This document shows, in pieces, positions 29,434 through 64,000 of a DNA stretch of 64,000 nt. The notes beneath the pieces were generated by a model that was not told where the DNA came from, ran no database searches, and saw only the letters and a list, made by a program, of their open reading frames with translations. How positions within the stretch are numbered: position 1 is the stretch's first letter; every line of letters starts with the position of its first letter. The position numbers and the translations under genes are program-made. This DNA is from Schmidtea polychroa. Its lineage: Eukaryota. Location: the NCBI GenBank assembly GCA_044892525.1, contig CM097887.1, forward strand, positions 109,718,397 to 109,782,396. The letters run 5' to 3'.

Positions 29434-30261
29434 GACTCCTTTGTGTTCTTTTCCAAATAAATAAATAAATAAATAACCCAACACAAAATCTTTATTGACA
29501 CTGATGCAGTTACACTTTTACACTTGTATTAGTTTACTCACACTTGATACAATCAGGTTTTGTCTACACTTTTCAATTTGCCAACAAATCTCACGCAGGG
29601 GTAGATCTTCCAACGGGAGATGTCCCTTTCTGGTACGTTCGATTTTTAAATGGTTTAATTTCTACTAACTTTAATATTTCCTTTTTCGCTCTCGTCAAAC
29701 TTCTATTTTCTTTTCTTCGACCAACTGGCATTTTGTTTTCTTGCCAGTTGCTTTTATACTCGTTTGGTAATTGACTTTATTTTTGCCAATTATTTTTGGT
29801 CTTATTTCCCCCCGGGTTTCCTCTTGGAGGTCTAATTCAATTGAAGGGAATTGGCTCATTTTCTTTGACGGCGCTTATTACTTTTTATCCGGCTAAATTA
29901 ATTGCCTTACCAAAATTGGGTTTCTCCGGCTAAATTAATTGCCTTCCCAAAATTGGATTTATCAATTCGCTCGGGTTTTCCATTGTATCGGGTTTCCCAT
30001 TAGCTCGGGTTTTCCATTAGTTAATTAATTTTTGTTTTTTGTAATTTATTCCTTTTAGGGACCCCCATTGATTTTATTTTATTATAGCTGAACTCGTCTC
30101 ATTATTTAGCATCCGCCCATACCAGTTTCCCCAGAAAATATTAATTTTTTTAAAATTTTTGATTTTTAATTAATATTTTGTACTTTAAATTTTATTTGTG
30201 AATTTGGTGTTTTTGTCAATTTTTCACCTCATTTTTGTGCCTCTCTTGTTGAACCCCAACA
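29434..30261 (-). repeat. Element 1 3' LTR (lacks terminal 35 bp)
   Basis: Matches 39039-39904 apart from 6 substitutions, 2 single-C indels and repeat-unit differences; begins TGTTGGGG on the minus strand right after the PPT. Confidence 0.92.
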
Positions 30262-30275
30262 TATCTCCCCCTTTA
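30262..30275 (-). promoter_or_regulatory. Polypurine tract of element 1
   Basis: Minus strand TAAAGGGGGAGATA abuts the TG start of the 3' LTR. Confidence 0.9.
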
Positions 30276-30329
30276 ATTTAGATTCGACCTCGAATCTGCA
30301 TGTATATAATAAGTCTAATTTACCATACA

Positions 30330-30661
30330 GTAATAACAATAATAACAATAATCACAACAATAATAATAATAATAATGGATTGCTATCTACCTATTTTAGC
30401 TATTGCCTTTGCCAATGATTTTAAATCTGCGCTATTTTATTTTGAAATTTCCTTATTCGACTCCCCCCATCATCCTCACACTACTTAATATAAATAATAA
30501 TGACGATAATAACACTACCAATAATAATAATAATAATAACAACAATAATAATAATTATTATTATATTATGATTTTTTTTTGAATAATAATGATAATAATA
30601 ATACTGATAATAATTCCTAATGACCACAATAATAAGGATAATAACAATAATAATAAAAATA

Positions 30662-30715
<54 letters not shown>

Positions 30716-30720
30716 TCAAT
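30330..30720. repeat. (AAT)n / (AAC)n low-complexity tract
   Basis: Visible trinucleotide repeats. Confidence 0.9.
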
Positions 30721-32171
30721 TGGGAAAAATCTATTTTCCCTTCTAATTTAATTTTCTAATTTCAGCATTGAAATTTGATTATCGACTATCTATCATAACT
30801 AGATAACTCGATTTAGTTTTTCATTTTCATAATTTAATATTTTCTTTCAGGACGAAAGATAGAGGAAAACAGTCCAATCAAAAACTACTCAAAAGAAAAT
30901 CGGGAGAGCCAACAACACAACCAATCAAAAATCGCTACTCCTATTATTTAAGGTAATTTACCACTTTTTATGGATATATTATAATTGATAAAAATACAGA
31001 ATTTGTAATAAATATAGATTTTAATTCCAAAAACATGAATTCAGGAAATCAAGAAATGAGATTTGCCCATTCCATCAAAGATAACCATTGGTAAATTAAT
31101 TATACATAAAAATAACAAACTATTATTAGATTTCTTAATGTGAAAATGGGCGAAAATTAATATACATCCTGTAATGTCTAGATTTTGTAATTTCCCGTCA
31201 AATAAATGTCGCCCGTTCAATAGGTTCGATCGCTTACATTGTAATCAATAAGGCGGACAAATCGGCACTATTTATGAAGTCAAATTAAACCAAATTTGGC
31301 GAGTATAGAATAAGCAGCATTTATGGAATATTCAACGAATAAATTTCATGGCAAAGAAGTACAATGATCAATTTTGGTTTATATCAGATTTATATTTAAA
31401 TATATACATTCAATAACGTTTATACTTTGATTCATTTATATATGCTTAATTTTCTCGCTGATAGAGCAGCCACTAAAGAACAGAGACAGCTTTCATTAGA
31501 TATTATCGGTCGTTGTCTTAGTAAAATGGAGGATCAAATACAAACGGTAACTTACAATTTATATTTATCACAACTGCATTTAATTCTATGAAACTCATGT
31601 ATTCAATTTCATATGCAACGCTGGTGATATTTTATTCAATTATATTATTGCAATCAATAATATTACTATCGTTTTAGAATTTCATTTATTGCCAGCAAAA
31701 GATAAATAAAATTCTTAATCGCCAAAAAACCAGATTAAATAAAAACAAAATTATTTTAATGATATTATCGTTGCATTTATTGTCATTATTTAATTTTACA
31801 ATTCCAAAACAGACCTATCCTCACTCAACAACTGAAATTCCTGTCCGGATCACACATCTAAACTAAACACTACTAATTTCATATTATATCCTAAAAAGGA
31901 ACAAAATCAGTCTACTCGCCAAACAGACTGACTAAGCATTGCTGAATGGAATTAATTCATTTTAATTTTAATTGACAAATTTAGCATGAAGAATTGTAGC
32001 CGTATTTTTTGATTATCAATTACTTGAAATTAAAATAGCAACCGGCTCATCACAATGTTTCCAGTAATTATCTGATTATATTATATTATTTATGAAAGAT
32101 ATTCTCATTATTGGTACGGAAATATATATAATACTAAATTGTTTTTTTTTGACTCGCTTATTTTCTTCCAG

Positions 32172-32342
32172 GTTGGATGTATGAATTATCTGAGAAAATT
32201 AACAAGCCTTATTCCGCTAATTGGACTGGTGAACCGGAAATATCCAACTATTTTATTACAGTGCTCTATTTTACATGCAGCAGTTTGACAAGTGTTGGAT
32301 TCGGTAATGTATCAGAAAATACAGACTTCATGCTACTGGGAG
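32172..32342 (+). pseudogene. Isolated EAG-family (KCNH, ELK-like) K+ channel pore exon with an ~8-codon deletion at the start of S6
   Basis: TTCCAG acceptor and GTGAG donor; GWMYELSEKINKPY...LYFTCSSLTSVGFGNVSENTD-FMLLG (family consensus LYFTxSSLTSVGFGNVSxNTxxEKIFSICxMLIG). Confidence 0.8.
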
Positions 32343-32744
32343 GTGAGAGCTGGTTATGAAAGAAAATAATTATTCACCGAAAATTCCAGCTCTTTGTCGA
32401 GTTTTAATCAGAAGATAATTATTTTTTTTTGCATAAATATAACTCAGAAATAATTTTGTTTACTTCGGTGGGACTTTTATCTATAATGTAAGTATAATCA
32501 GGGTTGAAAACAAATCCATTTCATTATTGATTAATATTATGAATTAAATTCTAAAGAAAACAATTTTTCAAATTTATCGAATACCTTGCATTGTTAGTGT
32601 GGTTATTAGCTGTGATATATTGAAGTGATTAGAATTTATTTTAGGTCGAAATATTTCAATACGGTTTAATTATTTATTTAAATTAGGTTATATTTATATC
32701 AATTCAGCAATGTTAAAGGAAATATACCTAAATTCGTCATATAC

Positions 32745-34052
32745 CTAATTTGTAATCATTTTTAAATAAAAATATTTTCGATAGTCGACACAAAATCTTA
32801 AATCACCGTCCTTCTTTTTAACTACTACTATTGATGATGAGAATGGTGAGGAACTATCTCTTATTATATTGAATTCTTTCATTGCTTTGATTTGCCGATC
32901 ACTTTCTTCCTGATGTATGTATGGTATTCTATACGGCCGTAATTTTATTGGGGTTTCGTTGAGTAATGGTATTTCATGCTCAATCACCTGAGTGAATCCC
33001 AGATCATACTCATGTTTTGCAAATACATTCCTATATTTCTTTAATAATGAACCAAATTCTTGTTTTTGTAAATCCGTTAAATCTTTGCTTGTGATCTGAG
33101 GTTCTTTATAAATTTTTATATTTCTCGGTAACTTCTGAGCTTCCTCTGATTTGATTTTTGTTAATTTTCCCAATTTGGTTTTGGGCTTTATTTCAACGGA
33201 TCTTGCACTATAATTCGCTATTCTAACTGGTACTGACTTATTTTGGACTTTCACTACTTCGTCACACATAGGCACATCGTATTTTTCAACCAGCTTTTGA
33301 TTTGGCTCAAATATGTACTCCTCATCTGAGACCCTCATAACATCTGCATAGTATATTACTTCGCTTTTTGGTGGTACTTCCAATGTTTGGTTTAGAAATA
33401 CTTCCCCTACTTCAGGCACTATTTCACCCATTTGTCCTTTTATTAGTTTTCCAGTTCTCAGATCAAGAGAAATTCCATGTAGTTGCTCCATGACATCCAT
33501 GCCAATAAGACATTTTACAGGACTTTTTCTCATCACTGATACCCAATGAATTATTTCTTTATCTCCAATTATCAGTTTAACTTCTAATTTTCCAACAATA
33601 TTTAGTGCATTATGTGACATTGATTTAATAATGTGATTCGTTGGTTTTATTTTGGCTTTCTCCTGATACGTCAAGAAGCTTTCCGCTACTATAGTATGAC
33701 TTGAGCCTGAGTCTAATAAAGCTTCCACTTTTCTCTTGTTAAACTGTATGTTTATTCGAGGTTGTTTTCCTCCTATTACTGTTGTCATTAGTGCATAGCT
33801 GCATGGTAGACCAAGCATATTCTTTCTTTCAATTTCCGCACTCGTTGGTTCAATCTTCTCTAATTCTATTGTGATATTATCGACCGATTTCATCTCTTTT
33901 AGTTTTTCACTTGGATATACTGGTGCTGTTGGTCTAAATGTCGGGGTATACCATCTACTAAGAGTATCAATCCCGCTTAATTTTGGCATTGGTTCAAGCA
34001 AGAACCTGGACTCTGGCTCTACTTTACTCTTTGTTACACTTTTCGAAAGCAT
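32745..34052 (-). CDS. Element 1 pol 5' part: aspartic protease, linker, RT N-terminus (truncated after FCVDYRK)
   Basis: EALLDSGSSHTIV; IEHEIPL...PIKLRPYRIP...SSPFSSSIVVVKKKDGDLRFCVDYRK; homology ends ~32776. Confidence 0.93.
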   Translation of the reverse strand: MLSKSVTKSKVEPESRFLLEPMPKLSGIDTLSRWYTPTFRPTAPVYPSEKLKEMKSVDNITIELEKIEPTSAEIERKNMLGLPCSYALMTTVIGGKQPRINIQFNKRKVEALLDSGSSHTIVAESFLTYQEKAKIKPTNHIIKSMSHNALNIVGKLEVKLIIGDKEIIHWVSVMRKSPVKCLIGMDVMEQLHGISLDLRTGKLIKGQMGEIVPEVGEVFLNQTLEVPPKSEVIYYADVMRVSDEEYIFEPNQKLVEKYDVPMCDEVVKVQNKSVPVRIANYSARSVEIKPKTKLGKLTKIKSEEAQKLPRNIKIYKEPQITSKDLTDLQKQEFGSLLKKYRNVFAKHEYDLGFTQVIEHEIPLLNETPIKLRPYRIPYIHQEESDRQIKAMKEFNIIRDSSSPFSSSIVVVKKKDGDLRFCVDYRKYFYLKMITN

Positions 34053-36056
34053 TTCTGCTCCGATTCCCCGTTGTTATTATCATCATTATGATCGTCGTTT
34101 TTATCTTCCGACTGACACGTAGATTCCTCACTTTTCCGGCCATTTCTTAATTGTGCCCTTACTCTTGCCATTTCTTTAAATTGATGATCTGTAATAAAGA
34201 ATCTAGCCAACAATGGAATACAACCAATAATTAATTTCCATGACCATCCCGATATTGCATATATTCGATGTACTGACAACATTTGCGACACTACCACCTT
34301 TGCCGTTATTACAATCACGTAAATTCCAATTAAACCTGCACATGCTTGTCCCAAAAACATGAACTTGCCCCAAATCTTTTCCATCGTTTTATACTTAGCT
34401 CGTTTGAAATGATCAGGTGTTAGCAAATTTTCGTAATTTACTGTTCCTTCTCCATTCGGTAATACTGTGTCAATCATTTCTGAAATTATCCGTTCCTTTT
34501 TGGATGGAAACAACAAATTCCTTTGAGCTTCTTCGATATCTTCGCTTGCATACAAGCCCATTTATGCCATTTTGTTTAGTGATGTGAAATTTATCAGGTA
34601 TTCTAAATTTGTTAATTCTAGTTTGTCTGGAGTCTTGACCCCACGATAATCTGGTAAGGCTATCCATGAGTCGGTAGCTAATCGGTATAAAGGGGCTAAT
34701 AATCGATTGCATTGCAAAAGTTTTGGTTTAGTTTATTCATCAAGCAAGATTCTAGTTATCGGTTCCATAAATCGTACCTTTCCCCCAAAGCTTACTGGTA
34801 ATTCGTTCGTACATTTTTCGTATTTGGCAATTTTCACTGTGACTTCTTTGCATTTGTAACTGTATAATGCTTCTCCAAATATTCTCGCAAACACTCCATT
34901 TTCTGATATTAGCATAGGTGCTACTAAATTTGGATTCGTAATTGCCATCGCCATCCGATTTCGGAGAATCTCTTTATTCAACTTGCAATCGTTCAGAATC
35001 ATTTCTCTATATACATTTTCCATGATGTTTTGACTAAAATGAAACAAATAATCAATTTTATTATTAAAATAATGAGTAAGTTTAATGTCATCTCTATGAA
35101 TTTTAATTTTTGCTTCTTCCACAACATTTCTAGACACGTAAACACCTTTATAATTTGTTACATATACCATTCGACCACATTTATTTGTGATTGCCTTTTT
35201 TATAAATCGCATTCCATCTGCTGGTAACGTAGACATTAAAATTGTTCCCATTTGTTTTGTCCATACTGGGGTTGATTTAATGGTATTATTTGGTCTATAA
35301 TTCATATTGAAATTATCTGGTTTATCTCTAAACTGTTCTCCTACTAGCTCTTTAAAGTTCATAGTTTTTAAGTGCACTAAATTACACTTATTTGTTTCTA
35401 CATTATAAACAAGAATCGATTCCCCTGTTCGACAATGTGTTTGTTTCATATTGCAGAATGGATGAGTTTGTAATTTTCCTGTATCATCATCGAAAGCTCC
35501 TTCGAACTCTCTCAACTCCGTGAGATATTCTTCTAGCACTACTGTTTGCTGAATAATTTTACCGTTCATTTTATATGGTTCACCTTCACAGTCGCCATTT
35601 GCTTTCATAACTCCCTTTACAATTATTGTTTCTCGTATTCTATGGTTCAATTTTGCCTTTAAACGAATTTCTGGACTTATTTTTAATTCTCCTGTTTGAA
35701 ATGCTGCTAGACAGTTTTCTGGAAGCACCTCGACTGGCCTAGGTATCGCATGCATTTTTATGAGTGACGTATGGCTCCATTTACCACAGTAGAATACGCA
35801 TGTTGTATGTTTGACAATACACTCTCTCACTTGAGTTCTTCGCAAATCAGACTCTTGATACACATAATATTTGACGTCATTTTCTATTTTTAAACTGCTC
35901 GGACACGCACCTGGGCATTCCGACATATCTACTACCGAATAAACTTTTCCCATTTCAGTTTGGGAACAATCGTACGCAACTAAAGATGATGTCTGTGTAA
36001 TTATTGCACAAAACGTAATCACCATAAACATCGCCCATGGAAATATCAGTTTTTCT
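34034..36056 (-). CDS. Element 1 env: chuvirus-G/herpes-gB-like class III glycoprotein, two in-frame TAA (34733-34735, 34562-34564)
   Basis: Hydrophobic signal then LVAYDC; Cys pattern YCGKWSH, DCEG, GEALYSYKCKEV, CTNELPV...FMEPITRIL, GLYASEDI; C-terminal hydrophobic segments. The same frame continues through both stops. Confidence 0.75.
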
Positions 36057-36128
36057 TAGTTCTGGCTTAACTCTTTCATTTACTCGTCTTTTGGGTGGAC
36101 TCATTTCTTGCTTCTCATTTTTCTTTTC

Positions 36129-36566
36129 TGTTAGAGATGAACACAGTGTTTTCCAACCACCTTTTTCGTTTACCCAGCTCATTAAATATTCGTTTACTAG
36201 CCGGGCAGCGATGTCTATCAAATTTTCTAACTTGTCTGACCTTGCGAACGTATGCGTTCCAATTTCTAAAACAACATAAGTTAAAGCTATTATTATAACT
36301 TCCTTATTAATTTCATTTTTTGTTAACTTTTCAATTACTGATCTCTCGCAAAATGTATTCTCTTCGCCAAATTTCTGCATCACTTCAGGAAGCCTGTTCT
36401 TCATCTCTTTAACTATTTCTTTCAGTTCATCATCTCCCTCTATTTCTATGTCGAACATTGGATATACTGCTTTAACGAGATGTTTCAACATTTTCTTAGT
36501 TTCGTCGACGTCTTGTTCTAGCTTCACTAAATATTTCTTTATTTCATATAAAGTTCTAACTTTCCT
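36129..36566 (-). CDS. Bcl-2-like domain within ORF 35955-37088
   Basis: BH2-like LMSWVNEKGGWKTL (36141-36185), degenerate BH1 EINKEVIIIALTY, BH3-like IEIEGDDEL; helical spacing fits the Bcl-2 fold. Confidence 0.7.
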
Positions 36567-36758
36567 ATTTTTGATTTCACTATTTATCTCGCCTTCAGGT
36601 ACAAGTGGCTCTCCTTGTACGTCTGGTTCTGTGGACTGATCTTTGTTACCAGGATCTTTTTGCTCATTATCACTAACGATTTCATTAATTTCTTTATTTC
36701 CCTTAACTTTTTCATCTTGTTCCTCTGTGTCAGGCTTGTTAGACTCAATATTTACTTC

Positions 36759-37043
36759 TAAACTGACTATTTTTACTACGACTATATGGTTCACTAAATA
36801 TCCCACTCGTCCATCTCGGATCAAATATCCATTTTCATCCAGCTCTTGTGGTACACACCCACAATCATATAAGTATTCATCATCGTCAAGTTCTTCACTT
36901 TTGTACATTATTATAATAATTCCATCTTTTCCCAGCGTTTCAGCCGCTCTCTTCCGCAATTTTCGGACCTTTGCACACCAATGCTCATCTACATATTCCG
37001 TTTTTCCATACCCCTCATAATCTAATGCTATCAAAAATGGCTT
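36759..37043 (-). CDS. Ubiquitin-like domain 2
   Basis: KVRKLRKRAAETLGKDGIIIIMYKSEELDDDEYLYDCGCVP aligns to ubiquitin TIENVKAKIQDKEG...[20 protein letters not shown]. Confidence 0.5.
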
Positions 37044-37329
37044 TAACTCTACTCTTGCCTTTCTGAGCTCCTTGCCCAATCTTTGCAAAAAAACTTCTTA
37101 ATAATTTGGCATATCTGGTTTTCACATGTGAATATGGTCGTATTGCATTCACTATTTTTAGTTTATCGTTTTCCTCCATTTCTAATTTCTCAATAATCTG
37201 TAACTTCTCATTAATTTCATCTTCATCTCCAATATATAACGCATCATTTAATTCCTCTAATACCTCTCTTGAATTCCTTTTGTCTATTATTTCACTACTC
37301 ATTATTTCATCACTAGTAACTACATTTTC

Positions 37330-37542
37330 CATTTTTAATTCATTTGTACTTCCTGGTATAAATCCACAATCTACCAAAAATTCGTCATTTCCTAACAATC
37401 TCTCATTAAATCTCAACTCTATCATGCATCCTTCCTTTTTTTCTTTTAATTTATTCTTTAAATCCTTTACACAATCATGTGCCTCACAACGACAACATAA
37501 TACACTTTTATCAATCTCGTTTACTACTTCCACAAAAATGAA
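37330..37542 (-). CDS. Ubiquitin-like domain 1 within ORF 37015-38079
   Basis: FIFVE...EAHDCVKDLKNKLKEKKEGCMIELRFNERLLGNDEFLVDCGFIPGSTNELKM aligns along the whole ubiquitin pattern. Confidence 0.65.
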
Positions 37543-38041
37543 ATCTAACCCTGTTTTCTCTCTCAAAGTTTTTCCAAATATTTTCATTAATTCTTTAATT
37601 TCGTCTTTATACTTTGGATTCATATTATAATAGTTAACGCACAAGCTAATTACACTTTTTATCTTTCTCATACTAAAAGATATTTGACTTAATTCTCTTA
37701 ACGATTTGATTACTTTAGCCGACTCTATTTCATTATTTCCAATTAGTTTTTCAATTCTGGTCATTATCATTGTTGCTTTTTCACTTTCCAAATCATCTTT
37801 TATAACTCTCCTTTTCGACTCCTTTTCATTTAATTCCTCTTGCGACTCATACATCATGTCATTATTGTAGTCCTCTTCTGATTCAAACTTTGACATCAAT
37901 CGATCCAAACGTCGACCCATTTCTCTCACTTCGCTTTCAATTCTTTCATTAAAATTATCTGGCTGAATAAAAGCTACATTATCCATCTGCGGTTTGTCAC
38001 TCTGAAACCTAATCGATTTCTTTAATATTGGCCTTTGGAAT

Positions 38042-38536
38042 TTATCCATTTCTTGGACATGATCTGGCCATGTGTCCATAACTTCTGCATGAATGACATT
38101 GAATTTGTCCTTGTAGATTTACTTTATCTCTCTGCGGTGATGTTGATGTTGATCTTGACCTGGCAAAACAATTTCGTGACACATGCCCTTTTCTTCCGCA
38201 ATTAAAGCATTGCAAGTTATCATTAGTTCTCTGATCACTAATATTCGCTTTAGTGAATCTTTTATCAATTTGTTGCCACGCTTCTCTGGCTGCTCCTTTC
38301 AGGTATAGCGGTAATCTTTGCACCATTATCGATTGGCTCCATCCATAGGCTGTCGCATACATATAGTAATCTGCCATGAAGTCTACAAATTCCAACGGAT
38401 CTCCCCCATACTGATCTACAGGTAGTTTTTGACAACTCGCATAGTCACTGCCTTCCTTGCCATTCCCCACAGAAACTGTGGACACGGGTGTTTCATCATT
38501 ATTATTTGTATTATTAACTTGTCTTTGGGTACTCAT
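38042..38536 (-). CDS. Element 1 gag (short; capsid fragment plus two CCHC knuckles)
   Basis: ATG at 38536; YGGDPLEF...GWS...RLPLYLKGAAREAW; CFNCGRKGHVSRNC and CHSCRSYGHMARSC. Confidence 0.9.
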   Translation of the reverse strand: MSTQRQVNNTNNNDETPVSTVSVGNGKEGSDYASCQKLPVDQYGGDPLEFVDFMADYYMYATAYGWSQSIMVQRLPLYLKGAAREAWQQIDKRFTKANISDQRTNDNLQCFNCGRKGHVSRNCFARSRSTSTSPQRDKVNLQGQIQCHSCRSYGHMARSCPRNG

Positions 38537-38981
38537 TATATTCTCTACTAGTTTTTGGCTTCTCAATTTATAAAATGATCTGGTTAACACAGGTTTTACT
38601 CGTCTAAAATTTAAAGTATTACAATTACAAAATTTACCTTTCGTTTTAATTTTGACTTTTCAAAAATCAATATCCACAATTATTATTTTCACTAATCTTC
38701 AATAATAAAATCACCACTTTAATAATTTTCCAAAAATATTCACCACTCTTAAATCAAATTTTTCACTTTAATATATGTATTTTTTATCTTTTATCAATTT
38801 ACAATACTTTCCCAATCTCAACAAATTTTTATCAACTTTTTATCACGTCAGTATTAATCGATATTTCAATCAAATATTTTCACACTTTAAACGAATTTTC
38901 ACCAACTTTGGAACACGTCTGTATTATTCGATATTACAGTCAAATACTTTCACAATTTCAACAAATTTTCACCGACTTCAG

Positions 38982-38999
38982 ATCACGTCGGGCTCACCA
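38982..38999 (-). promoter_or_regulatory. Primer-binding site, tRNA-Trp
   Basis: TGGTGAGCCCGACGTGAT, 4 nt after the LTR end; complementary at 17 of 18 positions to the metazoan tRNA-Trp 3' end as I recall it (AUCACGUCGGGGUCACCA). Confidence 0.85.
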
Positions 39000-39003
39000 A
39001 ATA

Positions 39004-39899
39004 TGTTGGGTTTTTAATTTAAGTCAGTACTACGGTCTGACTCCTTTGTGTTCTTTTCCAAATAAATAAATAAATAAATAAATAACCCAACACAAAATCT
39101 TTATTGACACTGATGCAGTTACACTTTTACACTTGTATTAGTTTACTCACACTTGATACAATCAGGTTTTGTCTACAATTTTCAATTTGCCAACAAATCT
39201 CACGCAGGGGTAGATCTTCCAACGGGAGATGTCCCTTTCTGGTACGTTCGTTTTTTAAATGGTTTAATTTCTACTAACTTTAATATTTCCTTTTTCGCTC
39301 TCGTCAAACTTCTATTTTCTTTTCTTCGACCAACTGGCATTTTGTTTTCTTGCCAGTTGCTTTTATACTCGTTTGGTAATTGACTTTATTTTTGCCAATT
39401 ATTTTTGGTCTTATTTCCCCCGGGTTTCCTCTTGGAGGTCTAATTCAATTGAAGGGAATTGGCTCATTTTCTTTGACGGCGCTTATTACTTTTTATCCGG
39501 CTAAATTAATTGCCTTCCCAAAATTGGGTTTCTCCGGCTAAATTAATTGCCTTCCCAAAATTGGATTTATCAATTCGCTCGGGTTTTCCATTGTATCGGG
39601 TTTCCCATTAGCTCGGGTTCTCCATTAGCTAGGGTTTTCCATTAGCTTGGGTTTTCCATTAGTTAATTAATTTTTGTTTTTTGTAATTTATTCCTTTTAG
39701 GGACCCCCATTGATTTTATTTTATTATAGGTGAACTCGTCTCATTATTTAGCATCCGCCCATACCAGTTTCCCCCAGAAAATAGTAATTTTTTTAAAATT
39801 TTTGATTTTTAATTAATATTTTGTACTTTAAATTTTAGTTGTGAATTTGGTGTTTTTGTCAATTTTTCACCTCATTTTTGTGCCTCTCTTGTTGAACCC

Positions 39900-39904
<5 letters not shown>
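39004..39904 (-). repeat. Element 1 5' LTR (901 bp)
   Basis: TGTTGGG...CCCAACA terminal inverted repeat; TATAAAA near 39361-39367 and AATAAA near 39100-39105 on the minus strand; five 17-bp U3 repeats. Confidence 0.95.
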
Positions 39905-52311: not shown

Positions 52312-53400
52312 TTTTTGAACCACAAAAACTGTTAAAATTTTAACATTTATTTCAAAAAGTTTAACTTTTACATAATTCATACATTTATTTTGATTCTACG
52401 GGCAGATTTTGACATTTCAATTAAAACTTCTTCGATCTCAATTGACTCATCTCTATAAATATTTAATAAAACTAATCCATTTAAGCGATCCTCAGTCATA
52501 GTAGCACGGTCAAAAGTTTTGATTAAATTAAATTTACTAAAGCTTCTTTCAAGCGTACAATTTGTAACCGGAAGAGTTACTAGTATTGAAAGCAACTTTA
52601 AAACATTCGGAAAAAATGTACTATTACAAGACTTGATACGATCGATTATTGAATTCGGTTTTTCAACAAACTTTGATAATCTCAAATTCCACATTTTAAT
52701 TTCTGCCCTTAATTGAGTTGCTGAAGCTTGCAAGTAGTCACCATAAAAGTCCAAAATATTATCAACAGCTTTCGCAATTTCTTCTTCAGCAATAATGTTG
52801 TGGTTAGTAATGATTCTAAATCCTGTAAAAATTTCTTTATGCTTTTGAAATCTTTCCTCAAGTTCGCTGCAGAAATTACTAATAAGCGGTTTGAATAAAA
52901 TATTTTGATAATATTCTTTTGTGCTTAAAATAACCATACGTGGTCTACCACAAAATCTCGATTTTCGAATATCAATTTCATATTTTTCAGCAATTTTTGT
53001 TGCATTTGACTATATCGCATCAAACTTGTTTCATAAATCTCCCTCTATTTCCTTGAATGTGTCAATAATATCCGATGATGCTTCTATAGCTTGTGTTATG
53101 TCGATCGAAACTGATTGTAAATATCTGCTAAGTCCTACAGTAATGCTCAGCGTATAGTCAAGTGACAATAAAGACACTATAAATTCAAATTTAAGAATCA
53201 TATTTAAGAATCCAATTGCTAAATGTGAAGCATCATCATTCCATTCAACAATGCTCTGTAAGTCAAACACAACTCCATCGAAAAGTTCAGTGAAAATTGC
53301 AGTTGTTTGATGGCGTTCTATAAATCGTGTAGGACATATATTTTTTAATTTCTTTTTTGTGCTTTCTGGGCATTTTTCTAGAGTTTAATTTCATAATTTT
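52312..53400 (-). mobile_element. hAT transposase relic (C-terminal dimerisation domain)
   Basis: CPTRFIERH; FEFIVSL; FPNVLKLLSILVTLPVTNCTLERSFSKFNLIKTFDRATMTEDRLNGLVLLNIYRD. Confidence 0.88.
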
Positions 53401-55879: not shown

Positions 55880-56936
55880 TGTTGGGTTTTGGATTATTTC
55901 AAGTCGGTTCTCTCTGACTCCTGGTGTTCTTTAAATTAAAACAATGAACGACCCAACGTATATTGAAACAACAGGTTCACAATTTATTATCACTCTACAA
56001 TTACCAATCAAAGTTTTACACGATTCTCTGCTCGGCGTTGATGCTTTGCAAACAAACAATATTCACCTTTTGATCCTTTAGTTCTGTTGACTCTCGTTTT
56101 CCTCGGTTTCGGTTTGGTTTGATCTCTTTTCTCCTTTCCGTATTCTTAATTCTATTTCTTCTTTTCCCTACTTCCCTAATTCGTTTACCACTTTTCCTAC
56201 AGTCTAATTCTTCGAACCCTAGCTGAGGCAAAATGCCGATTTTCTCTGATTTTCCCTTTGCTTATATACTCCTCGAAATCAGGATGACAAATGGTTATTG
56301 CCGAGCCAATCTTTCGTTTGACATTTTCTCCTACGTGTTTGCTTCGGCTGTCATCCATAATGGTCCAACGAATCCAGATAATTAATGGCCCTACCGGTCT
56401 TCCTACGCGCGTTATCTTCTCCTTACTCTTTTCCCATTAATCATTGTGTCAAACTAATGGGCCCAAATCTTCCTTTTGTTTGCCTTTCTTCTTGTTTACC
56501 CAGCTCGGGTTTCCTTTATCTCTCGGGTTCTCCATTGGCTCGGGTTTCCCATTAGCTCGGGTTTTCCATTAGCCAATTAATTAATTAATTAACGTTTTCT
56601 GTTTTCATACGTTTGAATGTTTTTCGACCCTTCCGAACCCTTTTCTGATAAATCCCTAACCATCATCTTGTTGACCATTAGCTAATCTATACCTGTCCCG
56701 TTTTTCCCATTCGATTTCGATGATTTTTCCATTTATTGATTTTTCTCGGATTTCCGGATTCTCGCCTTTCGTAATTGCTTTTTGCATTTTCTAATACTGT
56801 TTCCATCGCACTTTCCTTTACTATTAATTCTGTGCACGATCCCGCTTTTATTTGCCATTTTTCCTCGCTTACTTTCCATTTGAATTATTATCCTAAATTT
56901 TATTTAAATTTTAATTTTAATTTACAGACCTCAACA
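55880..56936 (-). repeat. Element 2 3' LTR (1057 bp)
   Basis: TGTTG...CAACA termini; left end TGTTGGGTTTT...AAGTC.GT...TCTGACTCCT..GTGTTC homologous to 39004-39053; four 17-18-bp GCTCGGGTTTTCCATT-type repeats at 56502-56570. Confidence 0.85.
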
Positions 56937-56950
56937 TATCTCCCCCCTTA
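56937..56950 (-). promoter_or_regulatory. Polypurine tract of element 2
   Basis: Minus strand TAAGGGGGGAGATA abuts the TG start of the LTR; nearly identical to the element 1 PPT. Confidence 0.9.
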
Positions 56951-57758
56951 AAAAATTTTTTCGTCCTCGAAATTTGTGTTTTAATGGAAAGTTTTGTTAA
57001 CATTAAATGTCATTATTATTCCTATCAACACAAATACCATTATTATTGTTATTTTTAATTTAAATATTATATATTAAAAGATATTCTTTAATAAGCTGGC
57101 AATTTTCCTGAATATATTTTTCTATCTTTTGGGGAAGGCTATTGGGGTAGGTAGGGATAGCAGAAATTAAACCTTTATAAATAATAGAATGTTATTTCTA
57201 AATTATTTATACTAGAAAGCAGCTATAATAAGTGGTTTAGGTCTCCTGTAGATCATTGTGGTTTGTCGACATGAGAATATGTGTGCACATCATGCAGGAA
57301 ATTACTTTTACCCCAAAGACTGAAAATACGGTTATAATTACAATAATACTAATAATTTATTGGCAAACTGCTTAAAATATTAGCCAACCAAAAATGATTG
57401 AGTTAATTTTGAAAATATGTAGAAACACGGCGGACCCGAACCCCAAAAGCAACTCTGCTTCAACAGAAACCAAAGAACCGACAAAATCTGGCCAAACCAC
57501 GGAGCCATGGGACCTCCGCTCACCAATCTGGGTATGTATGCAGAAAATAGCACGAGTACTGCTAATTTAACACCCTATGTAAGTAAGCCGTTAATTTTTT
57601 TTTTTTTTTTAATTTACACTATATTATTAATTAGTCATTTTTAAATTGTATAATAAAATATATATTCATATGGTAATTTTTTTTCAAATCCCACAGTTCA
57701 AATGTCAATACTTGTAAAATAAACACGGATTTTCCACTAAAAAAATTGGGAACAATTA

Positions 57759-58118
57759 TGCAGGTAGTCCGTTGTCAAATAATTAGACGGTTTTCCCACA
57801 GTGTCAGATTTATTTTTATCCCCTGTAAATTTGACAAATCAAAATCCTTTGCCGACCAAAAAAGTTATTTTAAAAATACGTCAGATTGAAACACACAAAC
57901 TTTCATATTGAATAGAAAATTCACTATATTTCACAACCTGCAGGTAATCCGTTGTCAAATAATTAGACGGTTTTCCCACAGTGTCAGATTTATTTTTATC
58001 CCCTGTAAATTTGACAAATCAAAATCCTTTGCCGACCAAAAAAGTTATTTTAAAAATACGTCAGATTGAAACACACAAACTTTCATATTGAATAGAAAAT
58101 TCACTATATTTCACAACC
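57759..58118. repeat. Tandem duplication, 2 x 180 bp
   Basis: Copies start at 57759 and 57939; one substitution (GTAGTCC/GTAATCC). Confidence 0.95.
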
Positions 58119-58989
58119 ATATTTCATTTTGTCTCCTATTAAAATAAATAATATATTCACTGAAATTGCTCTCTATTTATTATCTATTGAGAAGAAAGAA
58201 TGGAGAGAAAAATTCCTTCGTGTGGTGTTGCAGAGTAAGGGAATTATCATTGGTCGAGATTTTGTCGTGTCATAACTTTCTGCTCTTTCTGAGTCTTTAA
58301 ATGATGAAGTATCGATATTTTGTTTCATTACTTTTTTTCCCGTACACTAAGTAATCAATCTATTGCTTCATTCGAATTTCCGGAACAATCGACATTTTTG
58401 TGGCCAATAAATAACTCATAGAGAACACTTAAACGAGTTTAACGAAAAAAACACTTATCTATGGTTGACGATTGGGTTATAAAAACCATGTATTCTACCA
58501 AACGTCGAAGAAGAAACACAATGGTTAGATTAATTTTTTTTTTGTATTAATTGTATAAAAATTAGCACAGGTTTGAGATATATATTTACAATCTGTCGAT
58601 CAACTCTCAGAATTCCAGCTCAAATCGAAGGTTCAACAATGAAAACAAATGTTTTTTTTCATTATTTTAACAAATTTCTTTGGGTTTATTAATTTATATT
58701 TTTAAGATTGAAGTAGGTTTATTATTTATTCATTTTATGTAACAATTATATGTGATGTTATGAAATATCGGCAATTATAAAGCAATTCAATGATTTGCAA
58801 AAAAAATTGTTATTAATCTTGCTATTTACTAGCATGAGGATTTGAGTGGATATAATTGAGCATTTAAAATAATATTTAGGCATTTGTGTAATGCTTGCAA
58901 ATTATAATTGGAAATTATTTGAAAATTACCAAGGAATAATAATATTTGCAGTTCCCTGAAATGTTAGAGATATCAATTTAAATGAGAAA

Positions 58990-59270
58990 TAAACTTGAAA
59001 AATTACTACTACTACTACTATTATTATTACTACTATCAATATTATTATTATTATTATTATCATTATATATTGTTATAATTATTGCTGCTATTACCACTAT
59101 CATCACCATTATTATTATCAATATTATTATTTTTTCAATATTATATTATTATTATTATTATTATTATCATTATATATTGTTATAATTATTGCTGTTATTA
59201 CCACTATCATCACCATTATTATTATCAATATTATTATTTTATCAATATTATTATTATTATTTATCACAAT
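58990..59270. repeat. (ATT)n low-complexity tract with an internal higher-order duplication
   Basis: Trinucleotide repeats; block ATCATTATATATTGTTATAATTATTGCTG.TATTACCACTATCATCACC occurs twice. Confidence 0.9.
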
Positions 59271-61580
59271 CCTACTCCAATTATCGCTATTATCGGGACG
59301 TCTATTAATTGATGTAAATCATTTTTTGTCGGGACGTCTATTAAAAATCAAGTAGACTAACGACAGTCTGGTAAGGTTATCGGGACGTCTATTAAAAATT
59401 AATAAATCAAGTAGACTAACGACAGTCTGGTAAGGTTATTGTAGTTTCAGAGTATTGAAATTAATTACTTTAGGATATAACAGAGTACATTTAGTTTATT
59501 ATTTCAGGATATTAAAAAGATATTCCTGCATTTTGAAAGTGTATATTGCTCCTATTTTGGTTATGTGGTGAGAATAACAAGAAAAATTTTTTTTTTTTTA
59601 GTATCTGATTAAATTATATTTTGTTACAATTTGCATTTTTACAATTTTTGTGTGCGAGTTTATGAATTCATTAATTGATTAGACTAGCGACTTTGGTGGA
59701 AATCAACAGTAAAATTTATTGAAAATTTCTTATAGCTGTGGTTGTTGTTATTGTTCAAGATGAATACGGTTTACCAAGAATATGGATAAAATTGTGGTTA
59801 ATAACAGGGTTGAGCAGTTAATGGGATATGCTTGTGTGTTTGTCTGTGTGTGTGTGTCTTTACAGTTTGATCGATTTTTATGTGCAAAATATTTGTCTAA
59901 TTTATTCCCAGTCGCAAGGTAATTCATTTATTCTTTTTGTTTATGTTTTTTCTTTCATCATTATTACCATTATTATTAATATTATAATTTAAAAATAATT
60001 TTTTGTTATTAATAACTTATTGGTTTATTTCGCTCGCAGCATGGTAAAAAGTTAATCTCCCCCGCACCGACCGACTGTTTACTCAGCCTGATAAGGTATC
60101 TGCGATGAACATTAATATTCCGAATGAATTTTTTCTTATCCTGCGGTTTTTGACGTAGCCGATACCGATAGGCTCTATAATTAATTACCCTGTGGTTTCT
60201 TACGTAGCCCTGCTGATAAGCTTTCTAACTAATTACTCTGTAGTTTGTCAACGTAGTCTGTACTGATAAGCGTTCTATATAAGTTTCTGCTTTACCACTT
60301 TTCGTTAGTTTTGTCTTGCCAATCTTGAAGTAAGCATTTTATATTTTATTTTTCTTTTCATATTTTTTTTTGAATTTTAGTAACGCCATCCCTCAATTAC
60401 TATGGACGTAAGTGATTAACTATCTTTTGTTATTTTTTGTATTTGTGATTCTTTTTACCATGCTGTCCTCAACTACCCTCATAGTAACCGAACACTTGCA
60501 ATCGTTGTCCAGGGTAGCCAAACCCCGGTGATTGCAAGTGCTCGTGTTGCATATTAAATTAACTTATTGATGCTTATTAAATTAACTTATTTACTTTTTA
60601 ATTTTAATTCGTTAATTTGTTTATGCAACTACCTACACTCATGTTTTGGGTCATATATTTTTGATTTTTGATTTTGTATTTATACTAAAAGCAAACCTCT
60701 AATTACAGCTACTCGTATTTTTCTGACAATTTTAGCCGTATTTATACTTATTAATTTATTACGTAATTCTTAAAATCAATTACTTCCCTGCACTAATTAT
60801 TTGTCGAGGGCGCCATGGTACGGAGTTTTACATAGTATTTATTTCGTTTTTTTCTTTTCAACCCTTACTATTTTAGGCTGTGCCAGAACCTAAGTTTGAA
60901 CATCTCGATGTTATGCAATGGTTATTTAACTGCCATACTAACAGGTTTTTTAATTTCTTTTTCAGGGTCCCTTTACCACCGCGTCGAAAGGGATTGAAAC
61001 GTACCTTTGCCTGTGTGGATACAGGCAGTAGGTTTGAACGACGCCCGCCTTGCAATGTACGCAGGGAATGGGACTGTGGCATCCAAAGTCCCGTTCTGTT
61101 GGACTCTGATGACGAATAAACTTTGAATAAATGTTCAGCATACCTTTGTTTTTAATTTATGCTAGAAAGGGTGGGGTAATTGTGTCCCTCTTCGCGAATA
61201 GTTTTTTGTTACTACTAATGTGAAATTATTCCTTACTTATTTATAATTTTGTTCTCTCGCCCCAGTGGTTTACCCATTGCTATATAGTTATGCTAATTCA
61301 TTAATTACTAATCAGCCATATTATTTATTTCTAATGCTCATTTAAGGTAGTCATTTCATTATTTGCAACATTTATTTGAGTTATCCTATTTGCTCGTTTA
61401 ACTTTGTTCATTTTTATCTATTATTCATTCATTTAATTTATCACTTTTTTACTTATTTATTTATATCAATTCGTTTATTCATTTGATTATTTGTTAATTT
61501 ACTTATAATTATTTAACTATTATTTTTTTTTCTCGAGGACGAAAAAACACCAACAGGGTCCGTTTAAATAATTTATTTTT

Positions 61581-62002: not shown

Positions 62003-64000
62003 TTACAGTCTTGTCTCATAATATGATGGTGGTTGAAGGATAGTTAGTTGTCTCTCTTTTACACATATCAAGATGGTGATGATTATGAATGTTATTGATA
62101 AGATGAGAAAACCTGTTATTAAAATGTAAATGAGATATTCACAATAGTTGACTGTCAAATCCGAATTTATCATCATTAGTTTGTTTGAGTTAGGTTTTGT
62201 CGTCTCTTGGGTCGGTAATTGGAAAGGTGATGTGGTTGTATATGATTTTCGTTTCGATTCATTGATTGTCTTGACTTCCACGAAAACTGTTTGCCATCTG
62301 CCTGGATCGGTTATCCATCGCTGATATTTAACTGTTAATTCCCATGCCGTCTCTAAATCAGAAGTGTAAAGTGTAAAAAAATGATTACCGGCATCTAATA
62401 TAGTCAGGGATTTTTGTTTGTAGATAATAACAACTCTTTCATCATTTCCTGATTTTCTATATATCGTTACCGGTCCATTTCCAACACTCAGGGTTATACG
62501 ATTTGACTCGTCTCTGAGATAGATAGACTGGGTCTCACTCTTAAATCGTGACCATTGGTTTCTCACTACCGTTCCATTTTCGAGGCATATGTTCTCGTAG
62601 TAGTTTGCATTAACTGAATAATTTTGATTCATTTTCAATTTCTCGTAGAGGATAAATGATTTTCGCGAGTTAAGGGTGTCGACATTTAACCCTTGAAATG
62701 TGATTCGCACTTTCACCAAGTCCACTGGCTTCCAATATATATTGATTCCGTTTATCTCTGGTTCTATCTCGATCAAGTTTCGCATCTCTTTTGTGTGCAC
62801 TTCTATCGGAATTTGCGTGTACCACTTTGACATATTCTGTCTCAACAGCCATTGGTATTTGTAATTTGGCTTTAACTTTCGTACCGCAACTATATCTTTA
62901 TCATAATTCAGTTCTACCACTGGTGCCGTATTGTCTAGTAAATTAATAATTTCTATTTGGTCTGCGATCTCGCATTTACAGCTCCATACTATATTTGTTA
63001 GAGTGGAATATATATGTATTTTCTCCATTCCTCGGATTTTGTTTACCGCATATGGTAAATCAATCTTTTTGCCGCTCGCAACTGTTACTAACATCAGCAT
63101 TATTGCTACATATAATATCTTATTGATGTAGCTGACTGGTGTTGGATTTTTCGTGAATTTCTGTTTCAATTTTGTTTGACCCGTTACTTTATTCTGCTTG
63201 GATCTTAAGGGGTATCTAGATTCATCTTCCTCTGGCACTAGTTTACATCGATTTGCATGCACAATCATCGGGTTAGCCTTTTTACTCCTGAATGGTAATA
63301 ACTTCAAATTGGTTTCGGTGGTGTCGCACACTTTGTAGGGTCCTTTAAATGGTCTTTGCAATTTAGGCGATAAACCTTTGAGAGGTTCCGGTCTGTTCAG
63401 ATATACTAGATCTCCAATCTTTATGCCATGCGCATGTGCTTTTTTATCGTATGATTCTTTATATTTCTCTTGGTTGTGCTTTATTGTCAAACCGGCTTTA
63501 GTCCATACTGACTGCATTCTTTCTTGCATCAATGCTTTATAATCGGGTATCTCCATATATTGTGAAATTGGTGGTTGGAATTTGAGATCAATCGGCATAT
63601 TATTTTTCCTTAAATACATCAAGTAAAAAGGGGTCTCTCCTGTACTTTGATTTACTGCATTTCTGTAGGCAAACAGACACGGCTTTATGAAGTCGTCCCA
63701 ATCTTTCTGTTTTCGATTCACATATGATGAGATCATATTTATCAGTGTCCCATTAAATCGTTCCACCAATCCATCAGTTTGTGGATGATATGGTGACGTA
63801 TTCAATTTCCAAATTCCAAATAAGTCTGTGATTGATTTAAACATCTCGCTTTGAAAGTTCTTTCCTTGATCAGTTAACAATTTCTTTGGAGTACCATAGC
63901 GAAATATTATGTTTTCCACAAATATTCTAGCAATCGTATCTGCTTTTTGGTTTGGAATAGCGTATGCTTCTGGCCATTTGGTAAAGTAGTCACAAAAAAC
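62003..64000 (-). CDS. Element 2 pol C-terminus: integrase (DDE, GPY/F) fused in frame to an FN3-like type I membrane protein
   Basis: VFCDYFTKWPEA...LLTDQGKNF...YHPQTDGLVERFN...FKGPYKV; then ILYVAIMLMLVTVASG (63071-63118), FN3-like repeats, S/T stalk, TM and PPSY; no stop between the domains. Confidence 0.9.
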   Translation of the reverse strand, partial: VFCDYFTKWPEAYAIPNQKADTIARIFVENIIFRYGTPKKLLTDQGKNFQSEMFKSITDLFGIWKLNTSPYHPQTDGLVERFNGTLINMISSYVNRKQKDWDDFIKPCLFAYRNAVNQSTGETPFYLMYLRKNNMPIDLKFQPPISQYMEIPDYKALMQERMQSVWTKAGLTIKHNQEKYKESYDKKAHAHGIKIGDLVYLNRPEPLKGLSPKLQRPFKGPYKVCDTTETNLKLLPFRSKKANPMIVHANRCKLVPEEDESRYPLRSKQNKVTGQTKLKQKFTKNPTPVSYINKILYVAIMLMLVTVASGKKIDLPYAVNKIRGMEKIHIYSTLTNIVWSCKCEIADQIEIINLLDNTAPVVELNYDKDIVAVRKLKPNYKYQWLLRQNMSKWYTQIPIEVHTKEMRNLIEIEPEINGINIYWKPVDLVKVRITFQGLNVDTLNSRKSFILYEKLKMNQNYSVNANYYENICLENGTVVRNQWSRFKSETQSIYLRDESNRITLSVGNGPVTIYRKSGNDERVVIIYKQKSLTILDAGNHFFTLYTSDLETAWELTVKYQRWITDPGRWQTVFVEVKTINESKRKSYTTTSPFQLPTQETTKPNSNKLMMINSDLTVNYCEYLIYILITGFLILSITFIIITILICVKERQLTILQPPSYYETRL

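Follow-up and report, generated by a model that had tools for sequence, protein, structure and literature searches.

An env gene lying in frame between gag and pol is described for the planarian Burro elements in passages of PMC6431247, and passages of PMC13524379 catalogue gB-type errantiviruses of the order GAG-ENV-POL in flatworms, nematodes and bryozoans. Among the latter are Smed_errantivirus_1 and Smed_errantivirus_2 of Schmidtea mediterranea (HSV/gB-type), which are multi-copy (45 and 215 copies are given) and whose rows carry no assigned long terminal repeat (LTR) or primer-binding site; the same passages make no mention of a single frame, fusion, polyprotein or fibronectin for them (PMC13524379). 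Planarian stem cells, according to passages of PMC8532177, depend on PIWI silencing of these elements. Here, we describe a stretch of 64,000 nucleotides from Schmidtea polychroa (the window; GenBank assembly GCA_044892525.1, contig CM097887.1, positions 109,718,397 to 109,782,396 of the forward strand), which holds on its minus strand a dead, decayed copy of an enveloped planarian retroelement. Taken together with its sister copies, it very probably derives from a young, high-copy Ty3/gypsy LTR element, which in the sisters would encode Gag, cargo of ubiquitin-like (UBL) and Bcl-2-like type, a class III fusion protein, protease (PR), reverse transcriptase (RT), RNase H (RH), integrase (IN) and, by prediction, a second membrane protein. 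All of these share one frame of about 3,437 codons, whose product is likely cleaved by the signal peptidase of the host and the protease of the element.

The order and the env class of this element are those of the two S. mediterranea errantiviruses: a class III env (PF24664) lies between gag and pol. Its env is identical to that of Smed_errantivirus_1 at 194 of 251 residues (77%, counted by eye), so the two are not the same family, and an LTR, a target-site duplication (TSD) and a Trp primer-binding site are all seen in the window's family, unlike in the rows for the S. mediterranea elements. An initial annotation, made from the letters of the window, had read the locus as a single Gag-cargo-Env-Pol polyprotein and had suspected novelty in its order and fusion. 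The polyprotein holds for the family; the novelty does not, both features being known from passages on Burro (PMC6431247) and on the GAG-ENV-POL errantiviruses (PMC13524379).

The evidence for the single frame comes from the sister copies. At least 39 other copies are 97-98% identical to a 1.2-kb query (40 of 532 candidates were scored), and stretches around 20 copies give an element of about 16.5 kb with LTRs of about 900 bp. The family is young, since nine of ten LTR pairs differ by 0-0.67% (the other by 5.8%) and an exact 4-bp TSD accompanies 9 of 11 readable pairs. In a protein search, 23 of 109 scored copies proved to have one uninterrupted frame of 3,413 codons or more, exactly 3,437 in 18 of them; these lengths were reported for 109 of 1,883 candidates ranked by similarity to the query, so that the open fraction favours young copies. 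Where the window copy is broken, most sisters are open: 27, 28 and 26 of the 29 at junctions one, two and three, respectively, and 22 of the 23 that cover the first stop. Among 20 longer stretches, all 14 with coverage of the second stop and of the fourth junction are open there as well. The longer stretches overlap the set of 29, one or two being counted twice at the first three junctions. From these open junctions and the shared 3,437-codon frames it follows that one Gag-cargo-Env-Pol polyprotein is real in the family and that no recoding is involved. A nested insertion of the env/Bcl-2 block, a candidate raised by the initial annotation, is ruled out: in the window's family, as in two sister families, the block keeps the frame, it has no internal termini, and env is placed alike in a giant family.

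Assignment to Ty3/gypsy follows the order PR-RT-RH-IN (Pfam, in a sister copy; the window copy itself lacks RH and IN), LTRs with TG...CA ends, a tRNA-Trp primer-binding site, a polypurine tract and the 4-bp TSD. The genes encoding the primer tRNA form a 284-bp tandem array (locus L176, G000:C4, from about 55.02 Mb); 821 matches to a tRNA-Trp pattern were obtained, and nearly all of the first 100 listed fall in this array.

In the window copy, whose features are all on the minus strand unless stated, a 901-bp 5′ LTR (39004-39904; TG...CA, with a (TA)n run adjoining it outside) is followed by the primer-binding site (38982-38999), which corresponds to the 3′ end shared by genomic tRNA-Trp(CCA) genes. 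Six ORF pieces between 32,745 and 38,659 then follow in the order that had been annotated, Gag, two helical and UBL units, Bcl-2, Env, PR and RT, and Pfam domains and a repeat test support that order. The gag remnant (38042-38659) retains CCHC zinc knuckles (Pfam zf-CCHC), lacks about 710 bases at about 38,260 and is frameshifted near 38,050. Further frameshifts lie near 37,090, 36,050 and 34,040, and two TAA stops, correctly placed within env by the initial annotation, lie at 34733-35 and 34562-64; both are substitutions. The annotation's single-base repairs in homopolymers hold near 37,090 and 34,040, where comparison with up to 18 sister stretches shows one-base run changes, but not near 38,050 and 36,050, where the changes are multi-base and outside runs. 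What it took for a truncation is an internal deletion: the PR-RT spacer and the first part of RT (32774-33476) are joined at 32,774 to position 32,770 of a hypervariable 3′ zone (30277-32770), with loss of the rest of RT, RH, IN, the second membrane protein and an exonuclease ORF. The six breaks are thus accompanied by two large deletions, in gag and from RT to the 3′ region, which, like the two LTRs, go beyond the earlier description. A polypurine tract (30262-30276) precedes the 3′ LTR (29434-30261), whose outer 35 bases are gone, so that no TSD is readable for this copy; the LTR pair has 6 mismatches in 827 aligned bases.

The env ectodomain (34364-35983, gB/chuvirus-type) matches Monjiviricetes_fusion (PF24664) in two pieces, with Pfam E-values of 1e-52 and 9e-22, and sits between zf-CCHC and RVP. 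It is preceded by a predicted internal signal sequence (35984-36049, from hydropathy), directly after the frameshift near 36,050, and is followed by a predicted transmembrane (TM) segment (34277-34363, from the hydropathy of a sister copy). A small residue precedes the conserved env start xxAYDCS in six of seven families and relatives. As the initial annotation had proposed, late-domain-like motifs lie between the TM segment and PR: PTAP and VYPSEKL (33900-33932), downstream of the frameshift near 34,040 and directly before the aspartyl protease (33477-33767; LLDSGS, Pfam RVP). We take these PTAP and YP motifs to be late-domain-like from their usual meaning; similar motifs recur in distant relatives.

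Upstream of env, two tandem helical and UBL units with a linker (36430-38040, frameshifted near 37,090) precede a Bcl-2-like domain (36153-36425), for which the evidence is weak but consistent. The duplication had been proposed earlier and is confirmed here: a profile of unit 1 matches unit 2 of three families at E-values of 4e-14 to 1e-6, against 0.016 for the best of 150 shuffles, a repeat that BLASTP self-comparison missed. Pfam ubiquitin gives E 0.045 for a sister copy and E 0.00065 for a sister family, family B. For the Bcl-2-like part, Pfam gives E 0.0017, under the cut-off, and all 60 rows shown in a search of the PDB belong to the Bcl-2 family (best E 0.085). A Foldseek search with the cargo model, which is of low confidence, returned nothing at E 0.001. 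Protein identity between the window's family (family A) and family B is 82-84% in RH/IN, 69% in env, 36-39% in the cargo and 19% in the linker, env being far better conserved than the cargo.

In the sister copies, the frame continues past IN. A second signal, again hydrophobic, comes first, then an ectodomain of about 330 residues with many N-glycan sites, and then a TM segment. Identity of this part is 35% to family B and about 50% to a third family, C; the giant family has an analogous end, and five relatives are present in the protein library. All five C-termini seen end in T-x-V/L, which we take to be a class I PDZ motif. An FN3 fold for the ectodomain is a lead only (Atlas 0.84), matches to PDB profiles being weak (E 0.2 and 0.77) and Pfam giving no fibronectin type III match. 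We found no post-integrase membrane protein in the literature on planarian LTR elements, though the supplements of Grohme 2018 may cover it or accessory ORFs. We regard this conserved membrane protein as a candidate attachment factor of a gypsy element. A separate ORF of 496 codons resembles the exonuclease ISG20L2 (E 1e-10); it has no match in 20 stretches of family B, and no ISG20L2-like ORF was found reported for such elements. Two alleles of it, about 80% identical, occur on near-identical polyprotein backbones (L037, L050, L113-L116), a sign of module exchange.

How might such a polyprotein work? Processing by signal peptidase and the viral protease is plausible, and the arrangement of signals suggests that the chain would enter the endoplasmic reticulum twice. 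The first signal would remain as a tail anchor on Gag-UBL-Bcl-2 and so hold the capsid at the membrane. Env would lie in the lumen, with Pol hanging on its tail behind PTAP/YP motifs that could recruit ESCRT. The second signal, after IN, would liberate a type I surface protein whose last residues are T-x-V/L, and PR would free the enzymes. A likely role of Bcl-2, UBL and the exonuclease would be to dampen cell death or the sensing of RNA.

Several points weigh against this picture. The UBL and Bcl-2 matches are under Pfam cut-offs, and fold models of the helical and UBL cargo (pLDDT 42) and of the post-integrase ectodomain (pLDDT 36) are poor. The topology is based on hydropathy, and another hydrophobic stretch, which lies beyond the env TM segment, could change it. 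Family B lacks PTAP, and in family C no late motif was found. Between families A and B, pN/pS is 0.13-0.71 with saturated synonymous sites (pS 0.62-0.90), and the linker (0.58) scores near the cargo (0.43-0.53), so the ratio is uninformative on selection of the cargo. To these is added the bias of the ranked candidates towards young copies.

Other readings of the frame have to be set against these data. One takes the window copy as intact in the animal, its breaks being homopolymer errors of the assembly. Such errors would suit the two frameshifts that are one-base run changes, and public assembled contigs, which drop rare variants, did not confirm the window's own alleles, none of them bridging its breaks or the 32,770/32,774 joint. 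However, two frameshifts are multi-base and outside runs, the two stops are substitutions, two large deletions are present and 23 fully open copies stand in the same assembly, which makes this reading very improbable. Even less credit is due to the view that the pieces are separate ORFs joined by programmed frameshift or read-through. Many gypsy elements use recoding, and a shift or stop does lie near the first three junctions in 2, 1 and 3 of the 29 sisters, respectively; yet most sisters are open at every junction and 18 share the same 3,437-codon frame, so that recoding is refuted for the family.

More room must be left for a reading, still the less likely one, that accepts the single frame but gives env and the second membrane protein intracellular roles, in membrane tethering, in signalling or as an immune decoy, with no infectious particle formed. 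One frame would yield equal amounts of Gag, Env and Pol, which retroviruses do not make, and the second ectodomain weakly resembles host FN3 receptors. On the other hand, env is the best-conserved part outside Pol, at 69% against 36-39% for the cargo, and late-like motifs recur in distant relatives.

Copies that are 97-99% alike in their polyprotein differ wholesale in the segment of about 2-3.5 kb that separates the exonuclease ORF from the 3′ LTR (26 stretches were compared, 11 of them chosen for sharing the window's zone). In 40 further stretches, 32 were readable and fell into five clusters, the other 8 having no readable ORF end or LTR; family B has the same kind of zone. In the window, the zone is a mosaic common piecewise to other copies, and it includes a captured fragment of a KCNH-type potassium-channel gene (32110-32515, plus strand and thus antisense to the element; intron, pore exon, intron; Ion_trans_2). 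This fragment, with intron sequence, is present in five copies and is identical to a multi-exon host gene (L122) at 387 of 436 aligned columns, 32 of which are gap columns (about 95% outside gaps). Other copies carry pieces of SURF4, which over 442 bases are 96% identical to a host gene of several exons (L182), and 15 of the 32 carry pieces of a BTB-BACK gene, whose donor was looked for and not located; the zone of family B holds a Dpy19 piece and a weak small-GTPase piece (E 0.0008). Two donors, KCNH and SURF4, are thus traced at about 95-96% identity. Nothing on host-gene capture in planarian LTR elements, or on such a hypervariable 3′ zone, was found in the literature. Loci with antisense host fragments are, besides window positions 30277-32770, L035, L061, L068, L235 and L237, and single copies bear Penelope-like and hAT insertions in the zone (L063, 3944-6513; L071, 2219-2644).

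Among 234 representative peptides scanned (in the two sets with a strand count, 73 were sense and 82 antisense), all five host-gene types, one of them weak, are antisense to the element; this count leaves out the Penelope-like RT/GIY-YIG insertion and the hAT piece as secondary transposon insertions. The one-sided chance is 1 in 32 for five of five and 1 in 16 for the four above the cut-off, and the antisense excess is suggestive only. Purging of splice or poly(A) signals in sense orientation would explain the bias without function. The likely route of the fragments into the zone is template switching, with co-packaged unspliced host RNA as the other template, followed by recombination that shuffles them among subfamilies. 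The backward host pieces of the variable tail might dampen those host genes. A bolder joint proposal, which we regard as doubtful, makes the region from the last ORF to the 3′ LTR a dedicated, exchangeable capture cassette and the element a two-glycoprotein vector of host-directed antisense RNA between planarian cells. Pieces of unspliced transcripts (KCNH, SURF4, BTB-BACK, Dpy19, small GTPase) would be kept antisense and spread to tens of copies, element RNA or piRNAs would act on host genes and make silencing costly, and the second surface protein would be PDZ-docked beside the fusion protein. With antisense host fragments that can be traced and with stem cells that depend on PIWI, the 'hostage' idea of gene capture becomes testable.

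Related families surround this element. Family B has the same order, with frames of at least 3,333 codons in 11 of 111 copies and 3,334-codon frames among them; the end of such a polyprotein occupies 62003-64000 of the window (minus strand; IN, predicted signal, ectodomain and TM, with PPSY and ETRL present). Positions 56502-60600 are probably the 3′ part of this family B copy; they contain AAT-rich repeats, a tandem pair of 180 bp and an LTR-like 17-bp repeat that also occurs in the LTR of the window's family. Family C (L165-L166) has the same layout, with 82% env and 90% RT-RH identity to the window's family. Distant metagenome proteins (P0003-P0007) also have env before PR, at 38-43% env identity; P0003, P0005 and P0006 apparently have two or three protease-like repeats after env. 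A 210-aa ORF at 52377-53009 is presumably the C-terminal part of a hAT transposase, to judge from its motif.

The proposed processing has its counterpart in flaviviruses and hepaciviruses, whose polyproteins carry internal signals and are cut by signal peptidase and a viral protease; the likeness to the window's family is one of analogy only. The captured fragments recall the Drosophila telomeric retrotransposons (TART-nxf2), in which, according to passages of PMC13534243, short host fragments about 90% identical likewise occur in many copies and can direct piRNAs at the host gene. Those are non-LTR elements that captured mostly piRNA-pathway genes (PMC13534243), whereas the planarian family consists of LTR elements with unrelated housekeeping or neural genes, introns, antisense orientation and an exchangeable zone. 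Closest in design are Burro1-4/GYPSM1, which, in passages of PMC6431247, combine Gag, a ubiquitin/SUMO-like domain, BCL2, an in-frame env and PR-RT-RH-IN in one ORF, as does the window's family (its UBL and Bcl-2 matches being under cut-off). Burro elements are giants of over 30 kb and about 4,900 aa, compared with about 16.5 kb and 3,437 codons here; none of their MATH, BIR and ankyrin domains appeared in a Pfam scan of a sister copy, and the window's family differs further in its two helical and UBL units and in an exonuclease as accessory ORF. A Burro1-type giant does exist in the same genome as a separate family (about 4,780 codons, interrupted by breaks, with ORFs for MATH, ankyrin, BIR and TRAF), 52% identical to the window's family in RT-RH, 60% in IN and 33% in env. 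In this giant (L155-L157), the polyprotein includes MATH and ankyrin, accessory ORFs encode TRAF/MATH and BIR-RING, and at least 150 BIR matches occur genome-wide. That a family so compact and so recently active has dozens of open copies shows the single Gag-Env-Pol frame to be the working design, which is mainly confirmation: among planarian GAG-ENV-POL elements, the window's family is a new member that works like Burro without its size or its MATH, BIR and ankyrin domains.

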